A DNA stretch of 64,000 bases from an uncultured Clostridia bacterium (GCA_947631465.1 CANRLK010000003.1:701-64700); one strand, 5' to 3'; shown: positions 4,865-37,592, counted from the first letter of the stretch. The notes: generated from the sequence alone by a model not told the origin. Made by a program: numbers and translations.

Positions 4865-5452
4865 TTACCGATCGGTTAGCAGTTGTTTCTTCCCGTCGAG
4901 GAAGGGGCTTGCGCCGCGCTTTCTCATGCGATATACGAAGAAGTAGAGGGGCGCGCCGAGCGCGTAGATCCAGATGGACTGCGAGACGAGGAGGGAGACG
5001 AAATTCCAGGTATAGGCGATGAGCGCGGTCTCGAATCCTTCCGTGAAGCCGCCGATGTAGACGATGACGACGGGGATGATGAGCGCGTTCAAAAGGACGG
5101 GAAAGAGCCCGCCGAGGGCAACGCGGAGGATATGGGCGAACTTGTTTTTCGAAGTTTCGCGGAGGAGCTTTCCGATGAGGAAGGTCAAGAAAGCGGCGAC
5201 GAGGGTGACGAGAGAGCCCAAAAAGATGTCTGCGACGCCGTACTGCGAGATGACGTTCGAGAGCATGCAGCCGACAAAAAGCGCGGGGATCGCTTCGACA
5301 TAGAACAGGGGGAGAATGCAGAGCGCTTCTGCGGGACGGAATTGGAAGAGCCCGACGAAGCTCATCATTCCGAAAGAACAAGTAAGCGCAACATACAGCG
5401 CGGCAATGATGCCCGCGCGGCAGATGCGCCTGACGGAAAACAGTTGTTTCAT
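4865..5452 (-). CDS. queT: Queuosine-precursor transporter QueT (ECF S-component-like)
   Basis: It is a 195-aa polytopic protein with a QueT-like N-terminus (AALYVALT...FQFRPAEAL..LP). A preQ1-type leader lies upstream. Confidence 0.75.
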   Translation of the reverse strand: MKQLFSVRRICRAGIIAALYVALTCSFGMMSFVGLFQFRPAEALCILPLFYVEAIPALFVGCMLSNVISQYGVADIFLGSLVTLVAAFLTFLIGKLLRETSKNKFAHILRVALGGLFPVLLNALIIPVVIVYIGGFTEGFETALIAYTWNFVSLLVSQSIWIYALGAPLYFFVYRMRKRGASPFLDGKKQLLTDR

Positions 5453-5461
5453 AAAGTTGTA

Positions 5462-5504
5462 CCTCGGTTTTTTTAATCGGAAGTGTTTGCCGAAAACCTT
5501 CCGT
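5462..5504 (-). ncRNA. Candidate preQ1-I riboswitch
   Basis: The minus strand reads CGGAAG-GUUUUCGGCAAACA-CUUCCG-AUUAAAAAAA-CCGAGG. This gives a 5-6 bp P1. Loop UCGG can pair with tail CCGA, forming an H-type pseudoknot. The tail is A-rich and the pseudoknot would occlude the SD GAGG. The promoter is TTGACG-17-TAGAAT at 5530-5512. Confidence 0.6.
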
Positions 5505-5549
5505 GCATTTTATTCTATCACGATTTTGTTGCCCCGTCAAGCGTTTTTC

Positions 5550-5759
5550 TCAGGAAAGGGGGTCGGTCGGACGAAATGCGGCGAGCCAGAAGGCGAGCCA
5601 TGCCGCCGCAACGCCCGTGAGCGACAGCAGTGCGCGATAGACCGCTTGATTATAAAAGCAGAGAAAGAGCAATAAATCGAACCCCGAAAAGGCAAAGACG
5701 GTCAAAAAAACGCCCGTCAAGATCAGATACGCCGAGCATAGGATCGTTGTGAGTTTCAT
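5550..5759 (-). CDS. Small hydrophobic membrane protein (69 aa)
   Basis: It has two or three predicted TM segments and no recognisable family. Confidence 0.4.
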   Translation of the reverse strand: MKLTTILCSAYLILTGVFLTVFAFSGFDLLLFLCFYNQAVYRALLSLTGVAAAWLAFWLAAFRPTDPLS

Positions 5760-5804
5760 GCGATTAGTATTTGATACGGGCGGGTTTTTATAAGCAGGAT
5801 AAGA

Positions 5805-6062
5805 CTAATCGATCTTTTCCAGAACGAGCTTTGAAAAGTCGATATGTTCCATAAAATCGGACGGGCGAAAGACGACGTGGCGGAATTTCGCATAGTTGAA
5901 AATATGCGTTTTCAGAAGGACGGGCGTGGGGATGTCGAGCTTTTCGCAGATCCTTGTGAGGTATGAGAAAAACTCGGCGTAGGAGAAGGTCTCCTCGCAC
6001 GCGAAGGTGAACTGTTTTGCGATGTGTTCTCCGTGATAGACTTTTGCCCAAATGCGAAACAT
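5805..6062 (-). CDS. Hypothetical protein (85 aa)
   Basis: The start MFRIWAKVYHGEH is preferred because TGCTATAAT lies 6 nt upstream of it on the minus strand, indicating a leaderless mRNA. Confidence 0.5.
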   Translation of the reverse strand: MFRIWAKVYHGEHIAKQFTFACEETFSYAEFFSYLTRICEKLDIPTPVLLKTHIFNYAKFRHVVFRPSDFMEHIDFSKLVLEKID

Positions 6063-24867: not shown

Positions 24868-25803
24868 TCATGCCTTGTTTGCCGAGCCGAGCACATCGCA
24901 GATCTTGTGCTTGACCATTTCCTTCATCGAGGCGCGGGCGTCGGTCAGGTATTGGCGCGGGTCGAAGTGGGAGGGATTTTCCGCGAGGTGCTTGCGGACG
25001 GCTGCGGTGAAGGCGACGCGGAGGTCGGAGTCGATGTTGACCTTGCAGACGGCGAGCTTCACGGCTTTTTTGAGTTCGCTCTCGGGAATGCCGATTGCGT
25101 TGGGCATATCGCCGCCGAATTGGTTGACGATGGCGACTTTGTCCTGCGGCACCGAGGACGCGCCGTGCAAGACGATGGGAAAGCCGGGAAGGCGGCGACC
25201 GATCTCTTCGAGAATGTCGATGCGGAGTTTGGGGTCCTGTCCCGGCTTGAACTTATAGGCGCCGTGCGACGTGCCGATCGCGATCGCGAGGGAGTCGATC
25301 CCCGTGCGCTCGGTAAATTCCTGAACTTCGTCGGGCGAGGTGAAGAGCGCGTCTTTCGAGGCGACCTTGACGTCGTCCTCAATGCCTGCGAGCTTTCCGA
25401 GTTCCGCTTCGACGACGACCCCGCGCGCGTGCGCGTACTCGACGACTTCGCGCGTCGTCTTGATATTTTCTTCCCAAGGCTTGGACGAGGCGTCGATCAT
25501 GACGGACGTGAAGCCGTTTTCGATGGAATCCTTGCAGATCTCGAAATCCGCGCCGTGGTCGAGGTGCATGGCGACGGGGATATGGGTGGTTTCGACGGCA
25601 GCCGCCACGAGGTGGCGAAGATAGACGGGGTTCGCGTATTTGCGCGCGCCCGCGGAGACCTGTAAGATGACGGGCGAGCTGCATTCTTCCGCCGCTTCGA
25701 CGATCGCCTGGATCGTCTCCATGTTGTTGACGTTGAATGCGCCGATCGCATATCCGCCTTCATAGGCTTTTTTGAACATTTCCGTGGTTGTGACTAAGGG
25801 CAT
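24868..25803 (-). CDS. fba: Class II fructose-1,6-bisphosphate aldolase
   Basis: It starts MPLVTTTEMFKKAYEGGYAIGAFNVNN and contains HLDHG. The tracked ORF runs 18 codons further upstream. Confidence 0.97.
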   Translation of the reverse strand: MPLVTTTEMFKKAYEGGYAIGAFNVNNMETIQAIVEAAEECSSPVILQVSAGARKYANPVYLRHLVAAAVETTHIPVAMHLDHGADFEICKDSIENGFTSVMIDASSKPWEENIKTTREVVEYAHARGVVVEAELGKLAGIEDDVKVASKDALFTSPDEVQEFTERTGIDSLAIAIGTSHGAYKFKPGQDPKLRIDILEEIGRRLPGFPIVLHGASSVPQDKVAIVNQFGGDMPNAIGIPESELKKAVKLAVCKVNIDSDLRVAFTAAVRKHLAENPSHFDPRQYLTDARASMKEMVKHKICDVLGSANKA

Positions 25804-26039
25804 GGTATCCTCCGATGGGTTTTTCTTCATTATAGCGCATTTCGAGAAAAAATACAAGAAAAGCGCGATAGATTTTTCAAAAGAACAAATCGGGAAAGAA
25901 AGCGAAAATTCGCCGCAAACATCGTTGTTTCGCGGGGCGGAGATGATAAAATACAGGATACTTTCCCCGCGGCACGCAAATAAAAAACGCTATTGGACAG
26001 GCGTGCCGCAAACGGGGGAGAGGAAAGGAGATCAATTTT

Positions 26040-29000
26040 ATGAAAGTCATCAAAAGAACATTTTTGACGGCGGCTGTCACCCTGCTTGCGGCGGTATTGT
26101 GCCTGTTCGTGACGGGCATCGTGCTTGCGGCGTGCAGCGACAAGGTGACGCTGCGCTTCGTGACCAACGGCGGCACGGAGCTCGAATCGGTGGAGGGCGC
26201 GGTCGGCACTGCCTATCGCGTGCCGCAAGACCCCGAAAAAGAGGGCTACTTCTTCGACGGGTGGTACTTGCAGAGCGATTTCTCGGGTGAGCGGCAGGAA
26301 CTCCCCGACAAAATGCCAGACAAAAGCATTACATACTATGCAAAATATGTGCCTTATGCCTATCTCACCCTCGACCCTTCGGGCGGGACGCTGAGCGTCA
26401 CAGAGCATAAGATCAAGCCCGACACCTGCCTTTCGGAATACCTTCAAGATTTTGTTCCCCAAAAAGAGGGGCTCATCTTCGGCGGCTGGCTCAAAGACGG
26501 GACGCTGCTATCAAGCGATGCGCGCATGCCCGAGGGAAGCCTCACTTTGAAGGCAAAATACAAGGCGAACTTCGAGGTCAACGTCTATGTGCAAGACCCC
26601 GACAGCCCCGAAGAATTCCGAAAGAGCGAGAAATGGAGCAAGGCGGGCGAAGAATGGGAGGGGACGACCCTTCAAGCGGAGCTTCCGACGGACGAACATC
26701 TCTTCCTCGACCCCGAAAAGCAGGCGGTCTATCAAAAGACCCTTTCGGCGGGCGAGAATGTGTTGGAGTTCTATTATCTGCGCGAAGCGGCGAGCATCGG
26801 CTTTTCCGTCCGCATGCGGGACGGGACGGTCAAGACTAAACAGGTGCAGACGCTCTTCGGCGCGCATGTCGATCTTTGGGAAGGACCTGAGGCGGACGCG
26901 GGGTATCTTCTCTACGGCTGGGCGGAAAGCGAGGACGGGAGCGCGAAGTTTTTGCCGCTCGAACAGCTCACGGTCGGGCAAAAGGAGATCAGTCTCTTCG
27001 GAACTTGGGCGAGAAAGTACGAAGACCCCAAGCGCGGCGGGTATTTTGCCGTCGAGGAACTGAAAAAGGACGGAAAGCAAAGTGCGAGATATGTCTCAAA
27101 AGACGGCGGGTATGAAGCGGGCGTGTTCGATGAGACGAGCGGCGTGTTCTCCGCGAAAGAGCATGGGGGCAAGCTCGACGGGCACGGATATTTCTTGGCG
27201 GACGATTCGGGCGTTTACCGCGGATTCGACCTTGCCGCCAACGAGGCGAGCGCGGAAAAGTACGGCGAGCTTTCGCTTGATTTTGCAAACGGCACGGCGG
27301 TCCTTTCCCAAAACGGGGAAAAGACCGAGGGCAGTTATGACTTCTTGTGGGACGATTCCTTAAATCGCTATCTCGGGGTGTATCGGTTTGCGTCGCCAAG
27401 CGGCGAGAGATTCGACTTCGCCCTCAATGAGGAAAAGACGACCTTCTGCCGCGAGGGGAAGGAAAAGGGAGAATATTTCCGCTATGAAAACGGCGGGCGT
27501 TCGGCGTTTGATTCCCTCATGCTCGACGGCTACGGAAACGCGGTGTTCGCCGATCGGGGCGAGAGAATCGAGGGCAGTTATTTCGGCGCGGGAAAGGAGA
27601 GCGAGTGGCAGTTCGTCTCCGAACAGACGTCGTTCCGCTTCCTTGCGGGCACAAGGACGTATGCGGCAGGCGGCGAGATCGTCGCAAGCGAAAAAGGATA
27701 CCTTGTGTACAGCGGAGAACTTGCGGGGACGTATTCGGGCGCGGGAACGCTTTCCCTCGACGGCTATGGGCTTTGCGGCGAGTATACCGATCAAAACGGG
27801 CAAAAAACCGTCGGCAGTTTTTCCCGCGAGGGCGCGGTCATTTGCTTCGAAGAGAGCGGGCTGTGCTTCACGTTGAAGGGCAACGCGTTCTTTGTCACGG
27901 GAAAAGAGGCGGGAAGCTATGTCGGCGAGCGCGGGATGCTCACCCTCGACGGCTGCGGACAGGCGAGCTTGAAGAGCGGGGACAAGCTCCTCTCGGGCGA
28001 GTATTTGCGCGGCGCAGAGGGCGGCTTCACCCTGCGCATCTTCCAAGGGGAAGAGCTCAGATTCAAGCTCTTCGGGGATACATATCGGGTTTTCAACGCG
28101 GCGATCTTCGGAACTTTCGAGGGACGGTACAGCGAACGGCTCAGTCTCGACGGCTTCGGCGAGGGTGTGTATACGACGGCGGAAGAGATGACGCTGCCCG
28201 TCACGGTCGGGTATTTCGCCGACGGATTCTTGGAACTCACTTCGCCCAATTGGAACATGCCGCACTATTTCAAGCTGCTCTCGGTCAATAAGATGAAACA
28301 GCCCTCCGACTTCTATGTCGGCGTATACCGCGTCCTGGGCGAGGACGGCGGGGAAACGGCGGTGCTCGTCCTCGACGAGGGCAAGACCGCGCGCCGCTAT
28401 GATGGCGTTTCTTCCAAGACGGGGTCATATCTCGAAGGAACGGACGGCACGGTCAAGTGCTTCTTCGAGGGCGAGGAGACGGGGTATCTCCTCACCCAAA
28501 AGAACGGCAGGGCGGTCGCGATCGAGTCCAAGGGCACGGGAACTTACCAGAGCGGCGCAAACACCCTCACCCTCGACGGCTATGAGCGGGCAACCTATCG
28601 CTTTTCAAATCAAAAGATCGAGGGAAATTATCTGTTCGTCGGCGGGGCGTTGGAGCTGTATACGGAAAGCGGACTTTGGCGGTTTGTGTTAAGCGGAAAT
28701 TCGATCGAGCGCGTCTCGTACTTCGAAGGATATGACGGCGAGCGCGGGAAATTATATCTCGAACAAAACGGGACAACGGCTCTTTTCAAGGGCGAAAAAC
28801 AAGAGACGGGGAGCTATCAAGCGGTCGAGAACGGCGGGAAGAGCTACTTCGTCTATGCGGGCGGGGAGGAGTTCCCCTTCAAGGTCAAGGACGGGAAGTT
28901 CCGCGTCTATGATGAGAGCAAGGAAGCGGTGTTAAAGACCGCGGAAGGGGGGACGCTCACCCTCGACGGCTGCGGCGGCGCGGTGTTTGCGTACAGCGGC

Positions 29001-29543
29001 ATCCGCGCGGAGGGAGAAGTCTCCTTCGGCGACGACGGGCTCATCCTCTTCGAGTCGGAGAACCTCGAATCGCTCAGCGGCGTTCGGGCGTTCCGCGTCC
29101 TTTCGAGCGGCATGATCGCCCTTCTCGGGTCGGAGTACGGGACATATCATGCGGGCAGAGAGACCCTCTTTTTGGACGGAGAGGGCGGCGCGGTCTTTGA
29201 AGGCGTTCACGGCAGCTACCGATCGGCGGGCGAACGGGAGTTCGTATTCACGGGCGGCGGCAAGGACATTCGTATTCGTGTCAATGCGGGGACGTTTGAA
29301 AAATATTCGGAAGCGCTCGAACGGTTCTCGGGCAGCTATGAGACGGACTTGGGACAGATCGCGATCGACGGCTTTGGCGTAAAACTTCAAAGAGAGGGCA
29401 AGACGGTGCGCCTCGAAACCGTCTGCGTTTGTGACGGGCTGGTCGTCATAAGAGACGATCTCGGCGCGCTTTGGGGGATCGAGATCGGAGCGCGCGCGGA
29501 GGCGTTCCGCGTCGAAAGCGGATTTTTCAGGAGCGCGAAGTAA
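26040..29543 (+). CDS. Large lipoprotein (1167 aa): flg_new repeats plus about 11 copies of an uncharacterised module
   Basis: It has a signal peptide and the lipobox VLAAC. Listeria-Bacteroides-type repeats are present (VTLRFVTNGG...GYFFDGWY). The motif L-x-LDG-x-G...G-x-Y then recurs. Confidence 0.9.
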   Translation: MKVIKRTFLTAAVTLLAAVLCLFVTGIVLAACSDKVTLRFVTNGGTELESVEGAVGTAYRVPQDPEKEGYFFDGWYLQSDFSGERQELPDKMPDKSITYYAKYVPYAYLTLDPSGGTLSVTEHKIKPDTCLSEYLQDFVPQKEGLIFGGWLKDGTLLSSDARMPEGSLTLKAKYKANFEVNVYVQDPDSPEEFRKSEKWSKAGEEWEGTTLQAELPTDEHLFLDPEKQAVYQKTLSAGENVLEFYYLREAASIGFSVRMRDGTVKTKQVQTLFGAHVDLWEGPEADAGYLLYGWAESEDGSAKFLPLEQLTVGQKEISLFGTWARKYEDPKRGGYFAVEELKKDGKQSARYVSKDGGYEAGVFDETSGVFSAKEHGGKLDGHGYFLADDSGVYRGFDLAANEASAEKYGELSLDFANGTAVLSQNGEKTEGSYDFLWDDSLNRYLGVYRFASPSGERFDFALNEEKTTFCREGKEKGEYFRYENGGRSAFDSLMLDGYGNAVFADRGERIEGSYFGAGKESEWQFVSEQTSFRFLAGTRTYAAGGEIVASEKGYLVYSGELAGTYSGAGTLSLDGYGLCGEYTDQNGQKTVGSFSREGAVICFEESGLCFTLKGNAFFVTGKEAGSYVGERGMLTLDGCGQASLKSGDKLLSGEYLRGAEGGFTLRIFQGEELRFKLFGDTYRVFNAAIFGTFEGRYSERLSLDGFGEGVYTTAEEMTLPVTVGYFADGFLELTSPNWNMPHYFKLLSVNKMKQPSDFYVGVYRVLGEDGGETAVLVLDEGKTARRYDGVSSKTGSYLEGTDGTVKCFFEGEETGYLLTQKNGRAVAIESKGTGTYQSGANTLTLDGYERATYRFSNQKIEGNYLFVGGALELYTESGLWRFVLSGNSIERVSYFEGYDGERGKLYLEQNGTTALFKGEKQETGSYQAVENGGKSYFVYAGGEEFPFKVKDGKFRVYDESKEAVLKTAEGGTLTLDGCGGAVFAYSGIRAEGEVSFGDDGLILFESENLESLSGVRAFRVLSSGMIALLGSEYGTYHAGRETLFLDGEGGAVFEGVHGSYRSAGEREFVFTGGGKDIRIRVNAGTFEKYSEALERFSGSYETDLGQIAIDGFGVKLQREGKTVRLETVCVCDGLVVIRDDLGALWGIEIGARAEAFRVESGFFRSAK

Positions 29544-29568
29544 GGGGAGATCGCCCGAAAAGGTTTTT

Positions 29569-29609
29569 GCGCCGCCGCCCGAAGCGGGCGGCGGCGCATG
29601 ATTTTTTCC
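29569..29609 (+). terminator. Intrinsic terminator
   Basis: GCGCCGCCGCCC-gaagc-GGGCGGCGGCGC is followed by ATGATTTTTTCC. Confidence 0.85.
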
Positions 29610-29721
29610 ATCTTTTGCGATCGGACGCAAATTTTCACCGTGGAAAGCGTAATCTCTCTTGCTTTTTTTCGCAGATTGGTTTATAATGGAAACGATTTCA
29701 CCCAAAGAGTTGGAAAGAGAA

Positions 29722-30717
29722 ATGGAACGAAACGTCGTCTACTCGGCGGTACAGCCGAGCGGCATCCCGACGATCGGGAATTATATCGGGTCGGTGCGCA
29801 ATTGGCTCGCTTTGCAGGAGGAATACGCCTGCTATTTTGCGATGGCGAACATGCACGCGATCACCGTCCGCCACGACCCCGCCCTGCTTCGCCGCCGCAC
29901 GTTGGAGCTTTGCGCGCTCTACATCGCCTGCGGCATCGACCCCGAAAAATGCACCCTCTATGTGCAGTCGCAAGTCCCCCAGCATGCGGAACTTTGCTGG
30001 ACGCTCAATTCCGTCGCCTATGTCGGCGAGATGGAGCGCATGACGCAGTTCAAGGACAAGTCGAGAAAGCACGAGGACAACATCAACATGGGGCTTATGG
30101 ACTATCCCGTACTCATGGCGGCGGACATTCTGCTCTATCAGACCGATCTCGTCCCCGTGGGACAGGACCAGACCCAGCACGTCGAGATCGCGCGGGACAT
30201 CGCGATCCGCTTCAATAACCGCTACGGGGAGACTTTTCGCGTTCCGAAAACGCTCGTTTATAAGCAGGGCGCGAAGATCTGTTCCCTGCAAGACCCGACA
30301 AAAAAGATGAGCAAGTCCGACGAAAACCCCAACGCCTGCGTGTTCATGACGGACGACCGCGATACGATCATCCGAAAATTCAAGCGCGCCGTCACCGACA
30401 GCGGCAGTGAGATCAACTTTTCGGAGGACAAGCCCGGGATTTCCAATCTTCTTTCGATTTACTGCGCGTTCAAAAACCGCACGGCGGAGGAAGCGGAGCG
30501 GGAATTTGAAGGCATGGGGTATGGAGATTTCAAGCTCTGCGTCGGCGAAACGGTCGCGGACGCGCTTGCCCCCGTGCAGGCGGAGCAAACGCGCATCCTT
30601 GCGGACAAGGAATATTTGAGCGGGGTCTTGGCCCGCGGGGCGGAACAGGCATTCCGCGCCGCGAGAAAGACGCTCGACAAGGTCTACCGCAAGATCGGCT
30701 TTTATCGGGGAGAATAA
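29722..30717 (+). CDS. trpS: Tryptophan--tRNA ligase
   Basis: It carries QPSGIPTIGNYIG and KMSKSD. I prefer the start at 29722 because TATAAT (29682-29687) overlaps the alternative ATG at 29686. Confidence 0.93.
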   Translation: MERNVVYSAVQPSGIPTIGNYIGSVRNWLALQEEYACYFAMANMHAITVRHDPALLRRRTLELCALYIACGIDPEKCTLYVQSQVPQHAELCWTLNSVAYVGEMERMTQFKDKSRKHEDNINMGLMDYPVLMAADILLYQTDLVPVGQDQTQHVEIARDIAIRFNNRYGETFRVPKTLVYKQGAKICSLQDPTKKMSKSDENPNACVFMTDDRDTIIRKFKRAVTDSGSEINFSEDKPGISNLLSIYCAFKNRTAEEAEREFEGMGYGDFKLCVGETVADALAPVQAEQTRILADKEYLSGVLARGAEQAFRAARKTLDKVYRKIGFYRGE

Positions 30718-31583
30718 TGTTCGGCTACGTTCGCTATGACATCCCCAATCTCTTTGTGAAGGACCTCATGCTCTACAAAGCGCTCTACTGCGGACTTTGC
30801 AAGGGCATCGGAAAGAGCTGCGGACAGGTGGCGCGCATCGGGCTTTCCTATGACGTCACCTTTCTCTCCGCGCTCCTTCACAACATGACGGGCACGGACG
30901 TCGTCATTGAAAAGCAGAACTGTTTCGAGCATGCGATCAGAAAGCGTCCGATTGCGAAGGCGGACGAGCTGACGATGGAGCTCGGCGCGCTCAATACCCT
31001 GCTTGTGTATTTCAAGCTCACGGACGATCTTCTCGACGGCGAGAGAAAGCGGGGCAAGCGGCTGTGGTTCAAGACGGGGTTCAAGCGGGTCAAGAAGAAG
31101 TATCCGAAGCTTTTGGAGCTCGTCGAAGGGTATATGAAGGAGCAGGCGGCGGTCGAAAAGAGCGCGCCCCCCTCGCCCGACAGGGCGGCAGAGCCGAGCG
31201 CGTGCATGATGCAAGCGCTGTCCCGTCATTTTTTGAAGGAAAAGGCGTGCGAAGGAAGCGACAAGCTGTTCTATTCCGTGGGAAAGTGGGTATATTTGAT
31301 TGACGCCCTCGACGACTTCGACAAGGACAAAAAGAAGGGAAATTATAACCCGTTTGTCGCATCCTATCGGGAGGAGAGCCGCGAGGCGCTCATGAAGGCG
31401 CACGGGGAAGAGATCGCGTTTTTGTTCGATACCCTGTTCTTTGCGATGAGAGAGGGACTTTCGGACGTGAAGTTTTATTTCAACCGCGACCTTACGGACA
31501 ACGTCATCTTGCGGGGGATCCCGATCGAGACGCGGCGGGTCATGCGGGGCGACCCGCCCGAGAAGATGACCGTCCGCATATAG
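30717..31583 (+). CDS. DUF5685-like protein (family recalled from memory, unverified) with two Asp-rich motifs
   Basis: It starts MFGYVRYD...YCGLCK. It contains LTDDLLDGERKRG and IDALDDFDKD. The start shares one nucleotide with the trpS stop (TAATG). Confidence 0.75.
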   Translation: MFGYVRYDIPNLFVKDLMLYKALYCGLCKGIGKSCGQVARIGLSYDVTFLSALLHNMTGTDVVIEKQNCFEHAIRKRPIAKADELTMELGALNTLLVYFKLTDDLLDGERKRGKRLWFKTGFKRVKKKYPKLLELVEGYMKEQAAVEKSAPPSPDRAAEPSACMMQALSRHFLKEKACEGSDKLFYSVGKWVYLIDALDDFDKDKKKGNYNPFVASYREESREALMKAHGEEIAFLFDTLFFAMREGLSDVKFYFNRDLTDNVILRGIPIETRRVMRGDPPEKMTVRI

Positions 31584-31605
31584 AAAGCGAAAAAAAGAGG
31601 AAGAT

Positions 31606-32214
31606 ATGAATCACGAAAACTATGAAATTCTGAATTTGCCCGAGAGCGCGACGGACGAAGAGATCAAGACGCGCTACGAGGAGCTCAAAAAGAAGTACGG
31701 GGAAGAGCGCTGGCTGGAAGGCGAAGCGGGCAACAAGGCGGCGCGGATGCTCGAAAAGCTCGACGCGGCGTACGAGGAGATCATGCGCGAGCGCAAGGAG
31801 TCCCGCCGCAACACCGAGGGCGCGAATGCGTTCGAGGAAGTGTCCGAGCTCATCAAGAAGGGGGACATTTCGGGCGCGCAGGAAAAGCTCGATTCCTTCA
31901 ACGAGCGCAGTGCGGAATGGCATTATTTGCAGTCCGTCGTCTTTTTCCGCAAGAATTGGATCAGCGAGAGCAAGAAGCAGCTCGAAATCGCCATGCAGAT
32001 GGACGGCGGCAACGCCAAATACCGCGAGGCATATGAAAAGCTCAGATCCCGCGCCGAATATACGCAGCAGACGGGCGGCGCGCCCAACACCAATCCCAAC
32101 CCCGCTTCGAGCGACGAGCAGATGGGCGGCAATTTCTGTGCCAATTGCGCAAGTTTTTGCTATACCTTCCTTTGCGTGAATTGCCTCTTCAATCTCTGCT
32201 GCAATTGTAGGTAA
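31606..32214 (+). CDS. J-domain-like protein lacking HPD, with a C-terminal cysteine string
   Basis: NYEILNLPESATDEEIKTRYEELKKKY is J-helix-like, but GEE replaces HPD. The last 26 residues, FCANCASFCYTFLCVNCLFNLCCNCR, hold 8 Cys. Confidence 0.8.
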   Translation: MNHENYEILNLPESATDEEIKTRYEELKKKYGEERWLEGEAGNKAARMLEKLDAAYEEIMRERKESRRNTEGANAFEEVSELIKKGDISGAQEKLDSFNERSAEWHYLQSVVFFRKNWISESKKQLEIAMQMDGGNAKYREAYEKLRSRAEYTQQTGGAPNTNPNPASSDEQMGGNFCANCASFCYTFLCVNCLFNLCCNCR

Positions 32215-32215
32215 G

Positions 32216-32746
32216 ATGAAAAAGCCGACAAAATCATTTGAGATCGCGCTCTCTGCGATCGCCTGCGCCTTTGCGGCGGGATTTTTGATGCTCGGCACCG
32301 TCAATCCGTTTTTACTTGCGACGGGGTATCTTGTGGCGTCCTTTTCGGTCATGATCCCCCTCTCGCAGGGTTTTTTGTTCGGGAGTCTGCTCTGCTATGC
32401 GGCGGCGGGGCTCTTGGCGCTTCCGTTGGGACTTTGGAAGATCGTCCCTTACGCGGTCTTTTTCGGACTGCACCCGATCGTCAACTATTTGCAGAAAAAA
32501 CACGTCAAAAAACTCATCTGGAACGGCGCGGTCGAGGTCTTTAAGACGGTCTGGTTCGTGCTTGCGATGTGGCTTTCCTACTTTATTTTGAAGTCGTTCG
32601 CGGGCTTTACGTTTCCCGAGCGCTTGGAGCAGTACCTCTATCTCGTCCTCTTTCTCGGCGGGACGGTGTTCTTTGCCGCATACGACTTTATGATCTTCCG
32701 CTGCCAGCGTTCCGCGGACATTGTCATCAAACGCATCAGGAGATAG
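32216..32746 (+). CDS. Polytopic membrane protein (176 aa), unknown family
   Basis: It has 5-6 hydrophobic segments. It starts 1 nt after the upstream stop codon. Confidence 0.65.
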   Translation: MKKPTKSFEIALSAIACAFAAGFLMLGTVNPFLLATGYLVASFSVMIPLSQGFLFGSLLCYAAAGLLALPLGLWKIVPYAVFFGLHPIVNYLQKKHVKKLIWNGAVEVFKTVWFVLAMWLSYFILKSFAGFTFPERLEQYLYLVLFLGGTVFFAAYDFMIFRCQRSADIVIKRIRR

Positions 32747-32749
32747 AGC

Positions 32750-34165
32750 ATGGACAAAAACGAGATCATCATCGGCTGTGCCGAGGCGCTCGGCACGAGC
32801 GGAGAGGGGATCGTGAAACAGGACGGCATGACCGTGTTCGTCCCCTATCTTCTTCCGGGGGAGCGCGCCAAGATCAAGATCCTTCAAGTGAAGGGCAGCA
32901 TCGCCTACGGACGGGCATTGGAGATCTTCACGCCTGCCGAGGAGCGCGTCCGTCCCGTCTGTCCCGTGTTCGGACGGTGCGGGGGATGCCAATTGCAGCA
33001 TTTGCGCTATGTCGACCAGCTCCGCTTCAAGACGGCGGTCGTCCGCGAAGCGCTCAGAAAGATCGGCGGGATCGTGACGGACGTCAGCCCTTGCGAAAAG
33101 AGCGAGAAGGAATTTTCTTACCGCAATAAATTGCAGCTTCCCATCGGCAAGGTCGGCGGGGAGAACGTGCTCGGCTTTTATGCCGCGCGCTCGCACAGGA
33201 TCGTCCCCGTCAAAAACTGTCCCATCCACCCGAAATGGACGGAAAAACTCATTGCGGCGGTCGAGGCGTTCATGAAGAATAACCGCGTCGACGGCTTCGA
33301 CGAAATGACGCTCGAAGGGACGCTTCGGCATATCGTCGTTCGGGAGATCAAGAAAAAATACATCGTCACCCTCGTTTCGGCGAAGAAAACCGTTCCGCAC
33401 ATCGAAGAGTTCGCCAAACTGCTCGACAAGGTCTTTCCCGAGTACAGCCTGTATGTGAATTTTCATCCCGAGAACAACAACGTCATCTTCGGCGAGGAAT
33501 TTACGCTCGTCAAGGGCGCGGGCAGCTATGAGGGCGAGGAATGCGGCATACGCTACGAGGCGGGCGCGAACACCTTCTTGCAGGTCAACGAATGGGTGCG
33601 GAAAAAACTGTATGAAGAGGCAGTCTCGCTCACCTCGGAAGAGGATACCGTCATCGACTGCTATGCGGGCGGCGGACTCTTGACTGCCATGTTCGCAAAA
33701 AAATGCAAAAAGGCATACGGGATCGAGATCGTCCCCGAGGCAAGCGCCTGCGCCGACGCGCTCAAAGAGAAGAACGGCTTGGACGGGAAGATGGAGAATC
33801 TTTGCGGCGCGGTGGAAGAATTGTTGCCGCCGCTTTTGGAACGGGAGAAGGACGCCGTCGTCCTGCTCGACCCGCCGCGCGCGGGGCTCGGAAAGGGGGT
33901 CGTCGAGGCGGTCAAGGCGGCAAACGCCGAGCGGGTGATCCTCATTTCTTGCAATCCCGCGACCCTCGCGCGCGATCTCGGGCTGTTTACGGGAAGCCTC
34001 AAAAAGAACGAAAAGGGGGAACTTCTCAAAGCCGAAGGGGGAGATTACGAGATCGAGCTCGTCCGCCCCTTCGATATGTTCCCGCAGACTAAGCACGTCG
34101 AAACGCTCGTCGCATTGAAAAAACGGCGCGCGGGCGGCGATGATCAAATTGACAAAAATTTTTAA
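32750..34165 (+). CDS. rlmD: 23S rRNA (uracil-5)-methyltransferase, RlmD/RumA family
   Basis: It has a TRAM domain, the Fe-S cluster motif CPVFGRCGGCQLQH and a SAM fold (DCYAGGG, LDPPRAG). Confidence 0.92.
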   Translation: MDKNEIIIGCAEALGTSGEGIVKQDGMTVFVPYLLPGERAKIKILQVKGSIAYGRALEIFTPAEERVRPVCPVFGRCGGCQLQHLRYVDQLRFKTAVVREALRKIGGIVTDVSPCEKSEKEFSYRNKLQLPIGKVGGENVLGFYAARSHRIVPVKNCPIHPKWTEKLIAAVEAFMKNNRVDGFDEMTLEGTLRHIVVREIKKKYIVTLVSAKKTVPHIEEFAKLLDKVFPEYSLYVNFHPENNNVIFGEEFTLVKGAGSYEGEECGIRYEAGANTFLQVNEWVRKKLYEEAVSLTSEEDTVIDCYAGGGLLTAMFAKKCKKAYGIEIVPEASACADALKEKNGLDGKMENLCGAVEELLPPLLEREKDAVVLLDPPRAGLGKGVVEAVKAANAERVILISCNPATLARDLGLFTGSLKKNEKGELLKAEGGDYEIELVRPFDMFPQTKHVETLVALKKRRAGGDDQIDKNF

Positions 34166-34182
34166 CATAAGGAGATAAAAAT

Positions 34183-34701
34183 ATGTTGGACAAAAAAATT
34201 GCGGAAATGCTCAACGAGCAGATCAACAAAGAGCTGTACTCTGCGTACCTCTACCTCGACTTCGCGAACTACTACGCGGACGAGGGATTGGACGGTTTTG
34301 CGCATTGGTACGAAGTTCAGGCGCAGGAAGAGCGCGACCATGCGCTCATGTTCCGCCGTTATCTCTTGAATAACGGGCACAGGGTCACGTTCGGCGCGAT
34401 CGACCGTCCCGACAAGGTCTTTAAGGTTCATCTCGACCCCTTAAAGGCGGGCGCGGAGCACGAACGGTATGTGACGAAGCTCATCACCGAGATCTATCAC
34501 GAAGCCGCGGGACAGAAGGACTATCGCACCATGCAGTTCCTCGATTGGTTTATCAAGGAACAGGGCGAAGAGGAGACAAACGCCGACGACATGATCAAGA
34601 AATACACCCTCTTTGCGGGCGACGCGAAGGGGCTCTATGCGTTGAACCAAGAGTTGCTTGGGCGAGTTTACGCGCCTTCTACGACAGGACCGTCTGTATA
34701 A
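34183..34701 (+). CDS. ftnA: Non-haem ferritin
   Basis: It contains NEQINKELYSAYLYLDFANYY and the ferroxidase residues EERDHA. Confidence 0.92.
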   Translation: MLDKKIAEMLNEQINKELYSAYLYLDFANYYADEGLDGFAHWYEVQAQEERDHALMFRRYLLNNGHRVTFGAIDRPDKVFKVHLDPLKAGAEHERYVTKLITEIYHEAAGQKDYRTMQFLDWFIKEQGEEETNADDMIKKYTLFAGDAKGLYALNQELLGRVYAPSTTGPSV

Positions 34702-34784
34702 GCGAATCCATCTTGTAATAAAACTTTTTTGATGGCTTTGATGGCGACGCAGCAGATTGCTACGTCGCCTCATAATAATGAAAT

Positions 34785-35894
34785 ATGAAAAAGGAAACGG
34801 GACAATTTCATCGCGGCATTTTAGTCTCGCTTGCGGGGCTTTGCTGCAATGCCTTGCTTGCGGGGGCGAAGCTGTGCGCGGGGTTTTTGTCGGGGCTCGT
34901 CTCGGTCGTTGCCGACGGCTTCAACAACCTCTCCGACTGCGGCAGTTGTCTCATTTCTTTGGTCTCTTTCCGCATAGCGGAAAAGCCCGCCGATGAAAAG
35001 CATCCGTTCGGGCATCAGCGCGCGGAGTATATCGCCGCGCTCCTCATCGCCTTTCTCGTACTCGCGCTGTCCTTGGCGCTGCTGCGCGAATCGATTTCCC
35101 GTATTGCGTTAAAGAGCGAGGCGGTCGCGGAGCTGTATCTCTTTCCCGTGCTCGGCGTATCGCTCTTTGTCAAGGCGGGCATGGGCGGATTTTATGCGTA
35201 TCATGCGAAGAAAATGAAGTCGGAAGCCCTTCGTGCGGCGGCGATCGATTCCGCCTGCGACTGTCTTTCGACGGGGGCAGCGCTTCTCGGCGCGCTTTTG
35301 TCCCGCTTTTCCCTGCCCTATGCGGACGCAATCATCGGACTTTTGGTCGCGCTCTTCATTTTGTACCAAGGGGGGAAGATCTTGGCGGACGCAAGTTCCA
35401 AACTGCTCGGGCAAGCGCCCGACCGGGAGCTTGTGTCGGAGATCAAGGCGCGCATTTTGCAAGAGGACGGGGTTTTGGGGCTGCACGATCTCAAAATCTA
35501 TCCCCTGGGCGCGTACAAGAAGGTCGGGACGGTGCACATCGAATGCGATGCGAAAGAGGACGCGCTGGTCTCGCATGAGCGGCTCGACAAGATCGAGCGG
35601 GCGGTCAAGGAGGAGTTCGGCGTGGAGCTCACGGCGCATTTAGACCCCGTCGCGCTCGACGACGAGGAGAAGAGCGAACTCGAACAGCGCGTCCGAGCGG
35701 CGGTGGAGGGCATGGCGGACGATATGGACATCCATGATTTCCGCATTGTGCGGGGCGCGCGGGTCAAGCTCGTGTTCGAAGTGGGCATTCCGTTTTCGAG
35801 CAAGCTCGACGAGGGGGAGCTCAAAAGCGACATTTGCCGCGTCGTGAAGGTTTTGGGCGATTTTGAGCCCGTCGTCACGGTGGAAAGGGAATAA
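34785..35894 (+). CDS. Cation diffusion facilitator family transporter
   Basis: It has 6 TM segments, the sequence ADGFNNLSDC and a C-terminal dimerisation domain. No SD is present. CATAAT lies 8 nt upstream of the ATG. Confidence 0.88.
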   Translation: MKKETGQFHRGILVSLAGLCCNALLAGAKLCAGFLSGLVSVVADGFNNLSDCGSCLISLVSFRIAEKPADEKHPFGHQRAEYIAALLIAFLVLALSLALLRESISRIALKSEAVAELYLFPVLGVSLFVKAGMGGFYAYHAKKMKSEALRAAAIDSACDCLSTGAALLGALLSRFSLPYADAIIGLLVALFILYQGGKILADASSKLLGQAPDRELVSEIKARILQEDGVLGLHDLKIYPLGAYKKVGTVHIECDAKEDALVSHERLDKIERAVKEEFGVELTAHLDPVALDDEEKSELEQRVRAAVEGMADDMDIHDFRIVRGARVKLVFEVGIPFSSKLDEGELKSDICRVVKVLGDFEPVVTVERE

Positions 35895-35955
35895 ACGGAC
35901 AACTTTTTTCGCGCAAGAGTTTGCTTTTCTTGCGCGTTTATGCTATAATTTGACC

Positions 35956-36651
35956 ATGAAAGTGTTTGCCGTCAGCGATCTTCATCTTTCGGGCAAGGCG
36001 GATAAGCCGATGAACGTGTTCGGGCCCGATTGGGAAGGACATTTCGAGAAAATCAAGGCCGATTGGCGCAAAAAAGTGACGGACGACGACGTCGTACTGC
36101 TTTCGGGCGACACCTCTTGGGGAATGTATCTCGACGAGGGCATGTACGATGTTCAAAGCCTTGCCCCGCTTCCCGGGAAAAAGGTATTCATCCGCGGCAA
36201 CCACGACTTTTGGTGGAACGGCATCACGCGGGTCCGCGCCGCCGCGCCCGATCCCTCGTTCGTGTTTTTGCAGAACGACTGCGTCAAGATCGAAAATCTC
36301 GTCATTGTGGGTTCGCGCGGCTGGTCCTGCCCTGGGTCAACGGGCTTTACCGAGCACGATATGACGCTGTATCTTCGCGAGGGCGAGCGCTTTCGGCTGT
36401 GTTTCCGCGAAGTGCAGAAGGTCAAAAAAGAGGGAGATCTTTTGATCGCGCTCATTCACTTCCCGCCCTTTTCCGTCAAGCTCGAAGACACCGTGTTTAC
36501 CGAACTGTTCGAGGAAAACGGCGTCAACAAGGTCGTGTTCGGGCATTTGCACGGCGCGGGGTATTTCCCGCTCAAAAGCGAGAAAGGGGGCATTGAATAC
36601 TATCTCACATCCTGCGACAAGACCAACTTTTCGCTCGTCAGGATCGTTTAG
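35956..36651 (+). CDS. Metallophosphoesterase
   Basis: It carries VSDLHL, GDTSW and GNHDFWW. TTGCTT-17-TATAAT ends 6 nt before the ATG, with no SD. Confidence 0.88.
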   Translation: MKVFAVSDLHLSGKADKPMNVFGPDWEGHFEKIKADWRKKVTDDDVVLLSGDTSWGMYLDEGMYDVQSLAPLPGKKVFIRGNHDFWWNGITRVRAAAPDPSFVFLQNDCVKIENLVIVGSRGWSCPGSTGFTEHDMTLYLREGERFRLCFREVQKVKKEGDLLIALIHFPPFSVKLEDTVFTELFEENGVNKVVFGHLHGAGYFPLKSEKGGIEYYLTSCDKTNFSLVRIV

Positions 36652-36668
36652 ATACCAAAGGAGAAACC

Positions 36669-37592
36669 ATGAAAGAAAAAGACTTGTTGGGACTTTTGGA
36701 GCTGCCCGCGGAGGAGATCGACGAACTTCTCACCCTCGGCATGAAGATGAAAGAGCGATTGCGGCGGGGGGACAAGTCCTTGACGACGCTTGCGGGGAAG
36801 TCGGTCGTGACCCTCTTTTACGAGAACAGCACCCGCACCCGCACGTCGTTTGAACTCGCCGCCAAATTCATGGGGGCGCAGGTCGTCAACATCTCGGCCT
36901 CGTCCTCGTCCGTGCAAAAGGGGGAGACCCTCGTCGATACGGGCAAGACCCTCGACGCGATGAAAAACGACGTCATCGTCATCCGTCATCCGATGGGCGG
37001 CGCACCGCATTTGCTCGCAAAGACGGTCAAGGCGCACGTCGTCAACGCGGGCGACGGCATGAACGAGCACCCCTCGCAGGCGCTGCTCGATATGCTCACC
37101 ATGCGCGAAAACTTCGGAAAGATCGAGGGCTTGAAGGTCGCGATCTTGGGCGACATCCGCCATTCGCGCGTTGCAAAGAGCAATTTATTCGGGCTGAAAA
37201 AGCTCGGCGCGGAAGTTTCGATGTACGCGCCAAAGACCTTGATCCCCGAAGGACTCGACAAGATGGGCGCAAAGATTTGCTCGTCGCGGGAAGAGGCGGT
37301 CGAGGGCGCGGACGTCGTGATGGGGCTGAGGATCCAGCTCGAACGGCAAAAGGGCGGCAATTTCCCCTCGCTCGGGGAGTACGCCAAATATTACGGCGCA
37401 AACGAAGAACTCATGAAATACGCAAAGAAGGGCGCGCTCGTCATGCACCCGGGACCTGTCAACCGCGGCGTGGAGCTCACCTGCGGGCTCATCGACGGCG
37501 AAACCAGCCGCATCGAGGATCAAGTTCTCTCGGGCGTTGCCGTCCGCATGGCGATCTTGACTCTTCTCACGGAGGAAAAGAGAGTATGCTGA
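36669..37592 (+). CDS. pyrB: Aspartate carbamoyltransferase catalytic subunit
   Basis: It carries FYENSTRTR, HPSQ and HPGP. Confidence 0.97.
   Translation: MKEKDLLGLLELPAEEIDELLTLGMKMKERLRRGDKSLTTLAGKSVVTLFYENSTRTRTSFELAAKFMGAQVVNISASSSSVQKGETLVDTGKTLDAMKNDVIVIRHPMGGAPHLLAKTVKAHVVNAGDGMNEHPSQALLDMLTMRENFGKIEGLKVAILGDIRHSRVAKSNLFGLKKLGAEVSMYAPKTLIPEGLDKMGAKICSSREEAVEGADVVMGLRIQLERQKGGNFPSLGEYAKYYGANEELMKYAKKGALVMHPGPVNRGVELTCGLIDGETSRIEDQVLSGVAVRMAILTLLTEEKRVC

Follow-up and report, generated by a model that had tools for sequence, protein, structure and literature searches.

A conserved gene module of anaerobic Firmicutes combining a DUF5685 protein of predicted isoprenoid-synthase fold with a J-like cysteine-string protein

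What holds three small, uncharacterised genes together between a tryptophan-tRNA ligase gene and an rRNA methyltransferase gene? The question is raised by a 64,000-nucleotide stretch of DNA from an uncultured Clostridia bacterium (GCA_947631465.1, CANRLK010000003.1:701-64700), which is called the window here and supplies the coordinates used below. The trio, named P1, P2 and P3 in gene order, encodes a DUF5685 protein, a J-like protein with a C-terminal cysteine string, and a six-helix membrane protein. A preliminary description, made from the sequence without database searches, knew of no described function for this combination, and our literature search, which included J-domain, cysteine-rich, Clostridia and prenylation terms, agrees with it. 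Comparison across genomes identifies the trio as a conserved, translationally coupled functional module of Clostridia-type anaerobes (anaerobic Firmicutes), in which P1 and P2 form the core, joined in some lineages by P3, whose presence goes with the tail type of P2. In our reading of a structure model, P1 has the class I isoprenoid-synthase fold with its hallmark acidic motifs, yet belongs to a separate and very divergent family.

Database searches returned 2137 relatives of P1, 2330 of P2 and 255 of P3; because relatives are so numerous and the gene order is kept in the genomes fetched, the three are not chance open reading frames (ORFs). About 170 loci (numbered L001 and upwards) were sampled in all, a sample biased by the search patterns. 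The close set consists of 80 species-representative loci, all from Gallimonas/Scatosoma-like, Christensenellales-type metagenome-assembled genomes with a P1 55-79% identical to that of the window. Every close locus of sufficient length keeps the order P1-P2-P3-rlmD, and P2 lies directly 3' of P1 in 77/77 of these genomes; trpS stands upstream only in the nearer 53 loci (L001-L053). The distant set comprises 80 metagenome loci from a scan seeded with the most divergent DUF5685 members, with P1 about 27-42% identical. Here a P2-type J gene follows P1 immediately in 69 of the 73 loci with room for it; the two genes usually overlap or nearly abut, and the flanks vary from locus to locus. A P3 homologue comes third in 29/65 distant loci, and its presence goes with the kind of tail that P2 carries: it accompanies 15 of the 17 acidic tails (C.DCCCEC.GGD...CC) and none of the 12 tails of the CCPGG type. 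Co-conservation of the trio, which the preliminary description had proposed to look for, is thus very broad for P1 with P2 and extends to P3 in a large subset, not universally. In the CCPGG class, found in the human gut, the gene after P2 was considered as a possible polyprenyl synthase; this was ruled out, as it encodes meso-diaminopimelate dehydrogenase, a housekeeping enzyme.

Individual distant loci fill in this pattern. The order trpS-DUF5685-J-like is found in L081, L086, L089 and L090, whose P1 proteins are 31-39% identical, and the third gene of L089 and L090 encodes a membrane protein of 168-172 aa. In the cultured species Thermoanaerobacterium thermosaccharolyticum (L088; P1 29% identical) DUF5685, DnaJ and a 168-aa membrane gene follow one another, with QueT upstream and rubrerythrin-VIT1 downstream. 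Iterated hidden Markov model searches identify the third genes of L088-L090 as P3 homologues (E 3e-30 to 1e-41). Linkage to trpS was seen in L001-L053, L081, L086, L089, L090 and L133; neither the Scatosoma-like loci nor Thermoanaerobacterium show it, and 79/80 metagenome loci are without it. Similarly, rlmD follows P3 in Gallimonas/Scatosoma-like genomes and not in Thermoanaerobacterium, L089 or L090. In a single case, maybe a coincidence, a radical SAM/SPASM enzyme gene comes right after the Cys-string J gene (L108, 4533-5657, + strand); enzymes of this class crosslink Cys-rich peptides in Clostridia.

In the window, the module and its two neighbours are arranged as follows.

29659-30717, + strand: trpS, tryptophan-tRNA ligase (TIGR00233, E 1.3e-104), the upstream neighbour, outside the module core.
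30717-31583, + strand: P1, DUF5685 protein of 288 aa, defined by PF18937, an AlphaFold2 (AF2) model and a family alignment.
31584-31605, + strand: spacer of 22 nt between P1 and P2, with the ribosome-binding site AAAGAGGAAGAT (GAGGA), read from the sequence.
31606-32214, + strand: P2, J-like Cys-string protein of 202 aa, defined by a sub-threshold DnaJ match and a clade alignment.
32137-32214, + strand: region coding for the Cys-string tail of P2, FCANCASFCYTFLCVNCLFNLCCNCR (residues 178-202), delimited by tail statistics; the proposed acceptor or anchor.
32216-32746, + strand: P3, six-helix membrane protein of 176 aa, described by an AF2 model and Foldseek.
32750-34165, + strand: rlmD, 23S rRNA m5U1939 methyltransferase (TIGR00479, E 2e-98), the downstream neighbour, outside the module core.

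Re-reading the sequence gives coordinates, strand and packing of the three ORFs exactly as they had been described: one base is common to the stop of trpS and the start of P1 (TAATG at 30715-30719), and the gaps that follow measure 22 nt between P1 and P2, 1 nt between P2 and P3 and 3 nt between P3 and rlmD.

P1 is an unambiguous member of DUF5685. It matches the Pfam profile (PF18937) over residues 1-271 of 288 with E 2.7e-62 and 211.1 bits (cutoff 26.7), a strong full-length match that confirms the DUF5685-like label given to it from sequence. The profile is also matched by all 91 diverse relatives in our alignment, which are 26-66% identical to P1 with a mean column identity of about 36%. 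With 3756 clusters (50% identity, E <= 0.001) DUF5685 is a large family, and it is apparently restricted to anaerobic Firmicutes. Other sources add little: NCBIfam gave no match for P1, none of the 91 proteins contains a second Pfam family, and longer DUF5685 proteins offer no informative domain fusions, only miscalled starts or insertions. The literature searched on DUF5685/PF18937 gives neither function nor fold; it comes down to one in-silico survey of C. difficile, which lists the domain name. Sequence and profile searches of PDB sequences with P1 returned a single 11-bit chance match and designed helical repeats.

Conservation within the alignment is concentrated in a few polar positions. 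Invariant among the 91 members are G3, C25, C28, C69, D103, D107, E147, Y193, D196, D200, D204 and N211. Two Asp-rich motifs, LTDDLLDGERKRG (residues 101-113) and IDALDDFDKD (195-204), had been picked out in the preliminary description and compared with the two aspartate-rich motifs, first (FARM) and second (SARM), of isoprenoid enzymes; both are present, and their Asp residues are invariant family-wide. The three cysteines form, with H72, an N-terminal metal-type site of the pattern CxxC...CxxH. Among non-redundant members, the residue three after C69 is His in 105/114, Asn in 7, Ala in 1 and Cys in 1; for this reason we gave up the notion of a fourth metal ligand that is generally open.

The AF2 model of P1, built from the 91-member alignment, has a predicted local distance difference test score (pLDDT) of 95.8 and a predicted template modelling score (pTM) of 0.92. 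It is all-helical except for a small hairpin that bears C69 and H72, and it places the Asp-rich motifs at the C-terminal ends of long helices. When the model was compared with the PDB by Foldseek, the top 50 matches were essentially all class I isoprenoid-synthase-fold enzymes: the prenyltransferase MoeN5, PcIDS1, polyprenyl, farnesyl diphosphate (FPP), geranylgeranyl diphosphate (GGPP) and octaprenyl synthases, Ord1, which farnesylates Trp, the squalene synthase HpnC, and bacterial terpene cyclases. The alignments cover the whole chain, with template modelling (TM) scores of 0.45-0.57, the best matches lying at 0.5-0.57, and probabilities up to 1.0. The guess of an isoprenoid-synthase-like fold, offered before any search, is borne out in that a confident model matches only proteins of the class I fold in the PDB.

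P2 combines a J-like domain (about residues 4-64), a conserved helical middle resembling tetratricopeptide repeats (TPR; about 75-150, AEWHYLQ...ESKKQLEIA...N.KY), a low-complexity linker and the C-terminal Cys string. Its match to DnaJ (PF00226) reaches 24.3 bits, short of the 27.8 bits set as gathering threshold; most close homologues carry the PF00226 tag, and PDB J domains match P2 at E ~1e-3, aligning its KKYGEE with KKYHPD. The catalytic His-Pro-Asp (HPD), which stands between helices II and III, is replaced by GEE. It is absent from the whole clade of the window (0/77), also missing in the other trpS-linked loci, and kept in 63 of 69 distant orthologues, so that the window represents a derived, HPD-less branch. 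The Thermoanaerobacterium thermosaccharolyticum orthologue, for instance, has 203 aa, a DnaJ match of 57.5 bits, the motif KKYHPDQ and a Cys-rich tail, and its central block gives sub-threshold TPR hits, TPR_2 among them. NCBIfam DnaJ models cover just the first 60-90 residues or so of P2, at 9-22 bits against cutoffs above 300. The protein has neither the G/F region nor the CxxCxGxG zinc fingers, and it is without the C-terminal substrate-binding domains; the remainder consists of a family-specific helical region and the Cys tail. The view of P2 as a J-like protein other than a canonical DnaJ or CbpA paralogue is upheld by this family-specific core, by GEE in place of HPD and by the conserved Cys string. 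The label of an HPD-less J protein fits the clade of the window; most orthologues keep the HPD. Of the TPR-like helix pair, the helical middle stands, and the TPR label comes from sub-threshold hits in orthologues only.

Two side observations concern the J-like part. In L081, L086/L087, L089, L090, L133 and L001-L053 the HPD is replaced by a conserved stretch ..EE(R/K)(W/F).(E/D)GE.G.., and its loss coincides with trpS immediately upstream of DUF5685, which suggests one HPD-less subclade embedded in an aminoacyl-tRNA synthetase operon. In L096, L121, L136 and L104 the J domain is truncated or strongly degenerate (proteins of 128-191 aa) while the helical core is kept, and the tails of this group carry as many as 15 Cys among their last 35 residues. 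Since core and Cys tail are both retained where the J domain is degenerate, the J domain seems dispensable and the tail does not.

The tail is the most characteristic part of the family. Eight Cys within the last 26 residues, in a hydrophobic setting, had been noticed at the outset; they are there, and 7/8 are invariant in the clade, together with the J-like helices and the central block AEWHYLQSVVFYKKNW..ESKKQLEIA.Q.D..N.KY. Across the family, the median count is 8 Cys in the last 35 residues versus 0 in the rest of the protein, with a Cys at or beside the extreme C-terminus in nearly all members. At least 5 Cys occur in the last 35 residues of 67/69 distant orthologues; among 40 distant tails in a non-redundant set, 25 have -CC as their ending. 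In the clade of the window the tail is hydrophobic and free of acidic residues. It has no conserved Trp, the window having F where relatives have W. A Pfam scan of ten diverse P2 tails at E <= 10 found no family, CYSTM (PF12734) included.

P3, called a small polytopic membrane protein in the preliminary description, has 5-6 hydrophobic segments in its sequence and six long helices in its AF2 model (pLDDT 90.4, pTM 0.84), which supports that assignment. Near-invariant residues are L67, F83, G84, K110 and D157. Pfam and NCBIfam gave no match for the P3 of the window. Foldseek placed RibU of T. maritima and S. aureus at ranks 1-4 and 6 (TM score 0.53-0.60, probability 0.93-0.99); the E-values for RibU are weak, 0.25-1, and all other matches have TM scores of about 0.2-0.4. 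Among 32 diverse homologues, weak matches were obtained to DUF2232 in four (best 1.5e-7), to ECF-ribofla_trS in one (0.001) and to ECF_trnsprt in one (0.029); DUF2232 (YybS-like) belongs, we presume, to the same clan as the S components of energy-coupling factor (ECF) transporters. An hhalign comparison of the P3 family with the single ECF_trnsprt protein of L088 gave no signal, and no EcfA or EcfT genes were seen adjoining the trios in the neighbourhoods of L088-L090. On the model, the most fitting description of P3 is a membrane protein resembling ECF S components. As a side observation, ECF_trnsprt and QueT S components are encoded in a cobalamin-salvage cluster just upstream of the L088 trio (701-1186 and 5171-5662); with two of them in the adjoining cluster, S-component genes are clustered in T. 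thermosaccharolyticum.

How far does the transcription unit around the trio extend? A strong terminator-like hairpin at 29568-29598 (+ strand; 14-bp stem with 13 GC pairs, followed by a T run) precedes trpS, whereas inside the trio there are only weak terminator-like matches with 5-bp stems. T-box leaders are frequent in Firmicute trpS genes; an Rfam scan of 25000-37000, with the trpS leader region (29599-29725) included, found neither a T-box nor any other RNA element. Taken together, these results make a single trpS-P1-P2-P3-rlmD unit plausible, with trpS probably its first gene and rlmD probably co-transcribed with the trio. The trpS ORF as listed opens at TTG 29659, and its true start probably lies further downstream, because the Pfam match begins only at residue 23.

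The surroundings of this unit are less conserved. The hairpin sits directly 3' of a gene (26040-29543, + strand) for a 1167-aa protein with an N-terminal signal- or anchor-like segment and a Listeria-Bacteroides repeat (Flg_new) domain. Its identity is 56% in the nearest relative and 29-39% in others, and many loci are without it; it has the look of a fast-evolving surface protein. Ferritin and CDF cation-efflux genes lie directly 3' of rlmD (34183-35894, + strand), in the same position only in the nearest relative, L001, and the rubrerythrin-VIT1 gene adjoins the Thermoanaerobacterium trio, so that an iron or metal theme around the module is possible, though unconserved. Antisense ORFs of 270, 618 and 233 aa (31540-32352, 32312-34168 and 30702-31403, all - strand) overlap the trio and rlmD; they lie opposite well-supported genes and apparently result from codon bias at a GC content of 55%. 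PADLOC returned no meaningful defence-system match.

What, then, might the module do? Tentatively, we favour for P1 the role of a prenyltransferase similar to the trans type of isoprenyl diphosphate synthases (trans-IDS) that lipidates the C-terminal cysteines of P2, by analogy with ComQ and its substrate ComX. P1 would bind an allylic prenyl diphosphate (e.g. geranyl diphosphate, FPP or GGPP) via Mg2+ on its Asp-rich motifs and move the prenyl group onto cysteine thiols of the extreme C-terminal string of P2. Its Cys3(+His/Asn) metal site could serve the stability of the fold, or help to bind and activate the thiolate. The lipidated tail would keep P2 at the membrane, with P3 as a putative receptor or holder of that tail. 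In most lineages, the HPD-bearing P2 would recruit and activate DnaK at the membrane, and its TPR-like domain may bind clients or partners. The HPD is needed for Hsp70 stimulation; a P2 without it cannot stimulate DnaK for this reason, and in the clade of the window it would presumably act as an adaptor independent of DnaK. The wider claim, that DUF5685 is the founding member of a family of bacterial protein S-prenyltransferases on the trans-IDS fold and that the Cys string is lipidated and held at the membrane by P3, appears to us slightly less likely, yet still a realistic prospect.

A number of observations weigh against a prenyltransferase that modifies P2. The fold matches of P1 are modest, with Foldseek E-values no better than 5e-3 and none at or below 1e-3. 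At E <= 1, the isoprenoid Pfam families (PF00348, PF00494 and the terpene synthases) are matched by 0/91 DUF5685 members, and no profile link of P1 to any isoprenoid enzyme in the PDB was found. That both Asp motifs look into a single cavity, in the manner of FARM and SARM, is an assumption from their position at helix ends in the model. Sites of the Cys3His kind most often hold structural zinc and could hold an Fe-S cluster, and P2 tails with many Cys, Asp and Glu residues resemble metal-binding sequences as well. We know of no bacterial protein S-prenylation. Four of the 73 distant loci (L097, L105, L123, L139; P1 at about 5001-5850) have no J gene next to DUF5685 and form one subfamily (MFGYVRINKMDLTFREYEHYKAYYCGLCK...), which has a 450-aa MATE-like gene with multiple transmembrane segments downstream and genes for 3-deoxy-D-arabino-heptulosonate 7-phosphate (DAHP) synthase or of shikimate type upstream. 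Finally, P1 is without a Gln ahead of its second motif (Y-L-I-D-A-L-D-D; family consensus KWIYLxDAxDD). In trans-IDS-like peptide prenyltransferases a conserved Gln before SARM stands for Trp recognition, and those characterised to date target Trp only (PMC13290415). With this Gln missing from P1 and no conserved Trp in the P2 tail, the analogy with ComQ, if it holds, would point to a Cys-directed branch.

The same evidence has to be read against other functions. P1 might instead work on small-molecule isoprenoids and make a free lipid, be it as a synthase of prenyl chains, by head-to-middle or head-to-head coupling, or as a terpene cyclase, with P2 as a dedicated membrane co-chaperone or scaffold and P3 binding, importing or exporting substrate or product. 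Every fold match of P1 is an enzyme on small isoprenoid diphosphates, its Asp-rich motifs are invariant, P3 matches RibU and S components bind small molecules, and the J-less subfamily adjoins a MATE-type transporter, all of which agrees with such a role. We nevertheless think it unlikely, since it leaves unexplained the near-obligate, coupled Cys-string J/TPR neighbour (69/73, 77/77) as well as the covariation of P3 with tail type, and no other isoprenoid-pathway genes are linked in the loci examined. More improbable in our view is a module centred on metal or redox chemistry, with Zn, Fe-S or some other thiophilic metal bound both at the Cys3(+His) site of P1 and on the string of P2. Delivery or sensing of the metal or redox state would fall to P2, as it does to J proteins of the HscB or Dph4 type; P1 would be a scaffold turned from prenyl chemistry to another use, and a metal or cofactor would come from P3. 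This would account for a CxxC...CxxH pattern that is invariant or nearly so, for P2 tails that look like metallothionein-like CC/CxC clusters with acidic residues, and for the apparent confinement of the family to anaerobic Firmicutes; some S components carry metals, and ferritin and CDF genes lie downstream in the window as rubrerythrin-VIT1 does beside the Thermoanaerobacterium trio. The invariant acidic motifs of P1, however, are a Mg2+-diphosphate signature and not a thiolate-metal one, the iron and metal neighbours are unconserved (ferritin and CDF recur in the nearest relative only), and the tail in the clade of the window is hydrophobic and without acidic residues.

The position of the trio invites two further readings. 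With trpS directly upstream in many loci, the distant L081, L086, L089, L090 and L133 included, a divergent tyrS upstream in L082, prmC/prfA adjoining elsewhere and rlmD downstream in more than 70 genomes, P1 could modify RNA or a translation factor, P2 and P3 being accessory. We give this very little credence: it is weakened by the clade-limited nature of the links, that to trpS being confined to the HPD-less clade and that to rlmD to one family; the Rfam scan of 25000-37000 detected no T-box or other RNA element; and to our knowledge the class I isoprenoid-synthase fold has no RNA-modifying members. Alternatively, the trio might not be a functional unit at all, P2 being a degenerate DnaJ/CbpA paralogue and the genes neighbours by inherited synteny. 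The whole trpS-to-rlmD block is indeed syntenic in the 80 close genomes, which for that reason cannot by themselves separate function from ancestry. But the pair or trio persists at 27-40% P1 identity while all flanks change, the genes overlap, P2 is without the DnaJ G/F region and zinc fingers and has its own TPR-like core and Cys tail, and the presence of P3 covaries with the tail type of P2. Mere synteny is already contradicted by the distant loci and by this covariation, and we regard it as the least probable of all.

The placement of DUF5685 in an isoprenoid-synthase fold matters because the family is frequent among Clostridia of the gut and of the environment, and the placement gives a concrete and cheap hypothesis for it. 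If prenylation of P2 were true, neither the S-prenylation of proteins nor the lipid anchoring of Hsp70 co-chaperones would be confined to eukaryotes any longer. P1 would represent the first Cys-directed branch of the ComQ/PalQ class, useful for protein lipidation, and the module would have arisen convergently as the prokaryotic equivalent of farnesylated DnaJ and of the cysteine-string protein. If the prenylation reading is wrong, anaerobic Firmicutes still have in this module a widely conserved component of proteostasis at the membrane, or else of the handling of metals or lipids.

Comparison with known systems shows where each component resembles better understood proteins and where it departs from them. 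With the trans-isoprenyl diphosphate synthases, MoeN5 and the squalene-phytoene synthases (IPR008949), P1 is predicted to share the all-helical fold, aligned over the whole chain, and a first motif of DDxxD type (TDDLLD) followed about 95 residues later by a second acidic motif, DALDDFDKD. Unlike these enzymes, it stays under every Pfam and PDB sequence threshold, is shorter (288 aa), has a second motif of the form DxxxDxxxD followed by an invariant N, and contains a metal-type Cys site that they do not have. P3 is similar in size (about 170 aa) to RibU S components and has their six-helix fold in the model. It differs in that the P3 of the window belongs to no sequence family and in that its occurrence follows the kind of tail on a cytoplasmic protein, a linkage that we know of for no S component.

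For P2, the closest parallels in architecture are eukaryotic. Type I J proteins are farnesylated and the cysteine-string protein (CSP) is S-acylated in eukaryotes, and P2 has the order of DNAJC5 (CSP), Ydj1 and DNAJA: a J domain, a linker and a C-terminal Cys-rich segment like a lipid anchor. CSP works with a TPR protein, whereas in P2 the TPR-like region is fused within the same chain; the -CC and -CxC endings of P2 recall the prenylation motifs of Rab proteins. P2 is not homologous to these proteins beyond the J domain, however, and the likeness is almost certainly convergent; the P2 of the window is without HPD, lipidation of P2 is hypothetical, and the modifying enzymes of eukaryotes, DHHC acyltransferases and the alpha-alpha-barrel farnesyl- and geranylgeranyltransferases, have folds unrelated to P1. 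Among bacterial proteins, E. coli DjlA holds a J domain at the inner membrane face and localises DnaK activity there, as is proposed for P2. DjlA has an N-terminal transmembrane anchor and a C-terminal J domain, whereas in P2 the order is reversed; P2 has no transmembrane helix, ends in a Cys string and comes with an enzyme-like partner of its own.

According to a 2026 review, ComQ, PalQ and ChrPC, which prenylate peptides, are members of the isoprenoid-synthase superfamily and resemble Ord1 (PMC13290415). P1 is like them in its predicted class I fold, with Ord1 and MoeN5 among its Foldseek matches, and in its two Asp-rich motifs. In comQ-comX and palQ-palX the enzyme acts on a peptide encoded next door, as is generally known and in part documented in a census (PMC4008528); correspondingly, the P1 gene is directly followed, and often overlapped, by that of its presumed substrate P2. 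PalQ needs its acceptor residue at the terminus of the peptide (PMC13290415; PMC10853753), and P2 has its conserved Cys at the extreme C-terminus. The differences are considerable: P1 has no detectable sequence similarity to these enzymes, is without the Trp-recognition Gln (YLIDALDD) and would have Cys as the acceptor in P2, and it carries the extra N-terminal Cys3(+His) site. P2 is a J/TPR protein of 200 aa and not a short pheromone or the precursor of a ribosomally synthesised and post-translationally modified peptide, unlike ComX and PalX, and the trio is without a signalling partner of ComP/ComA type. By their defining features P1 and P2 fall outside the Trp-prenyltransferase families, canonical DnaJ/CbpA and CYSTM, and with the isoprenoid-synthase and S-component classes the agreement is at the level of the fold alone. 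Judged by analogy across all of these systems, we infer that the module works most like an enzyme-substrate pair of the ComQ/ComX type.

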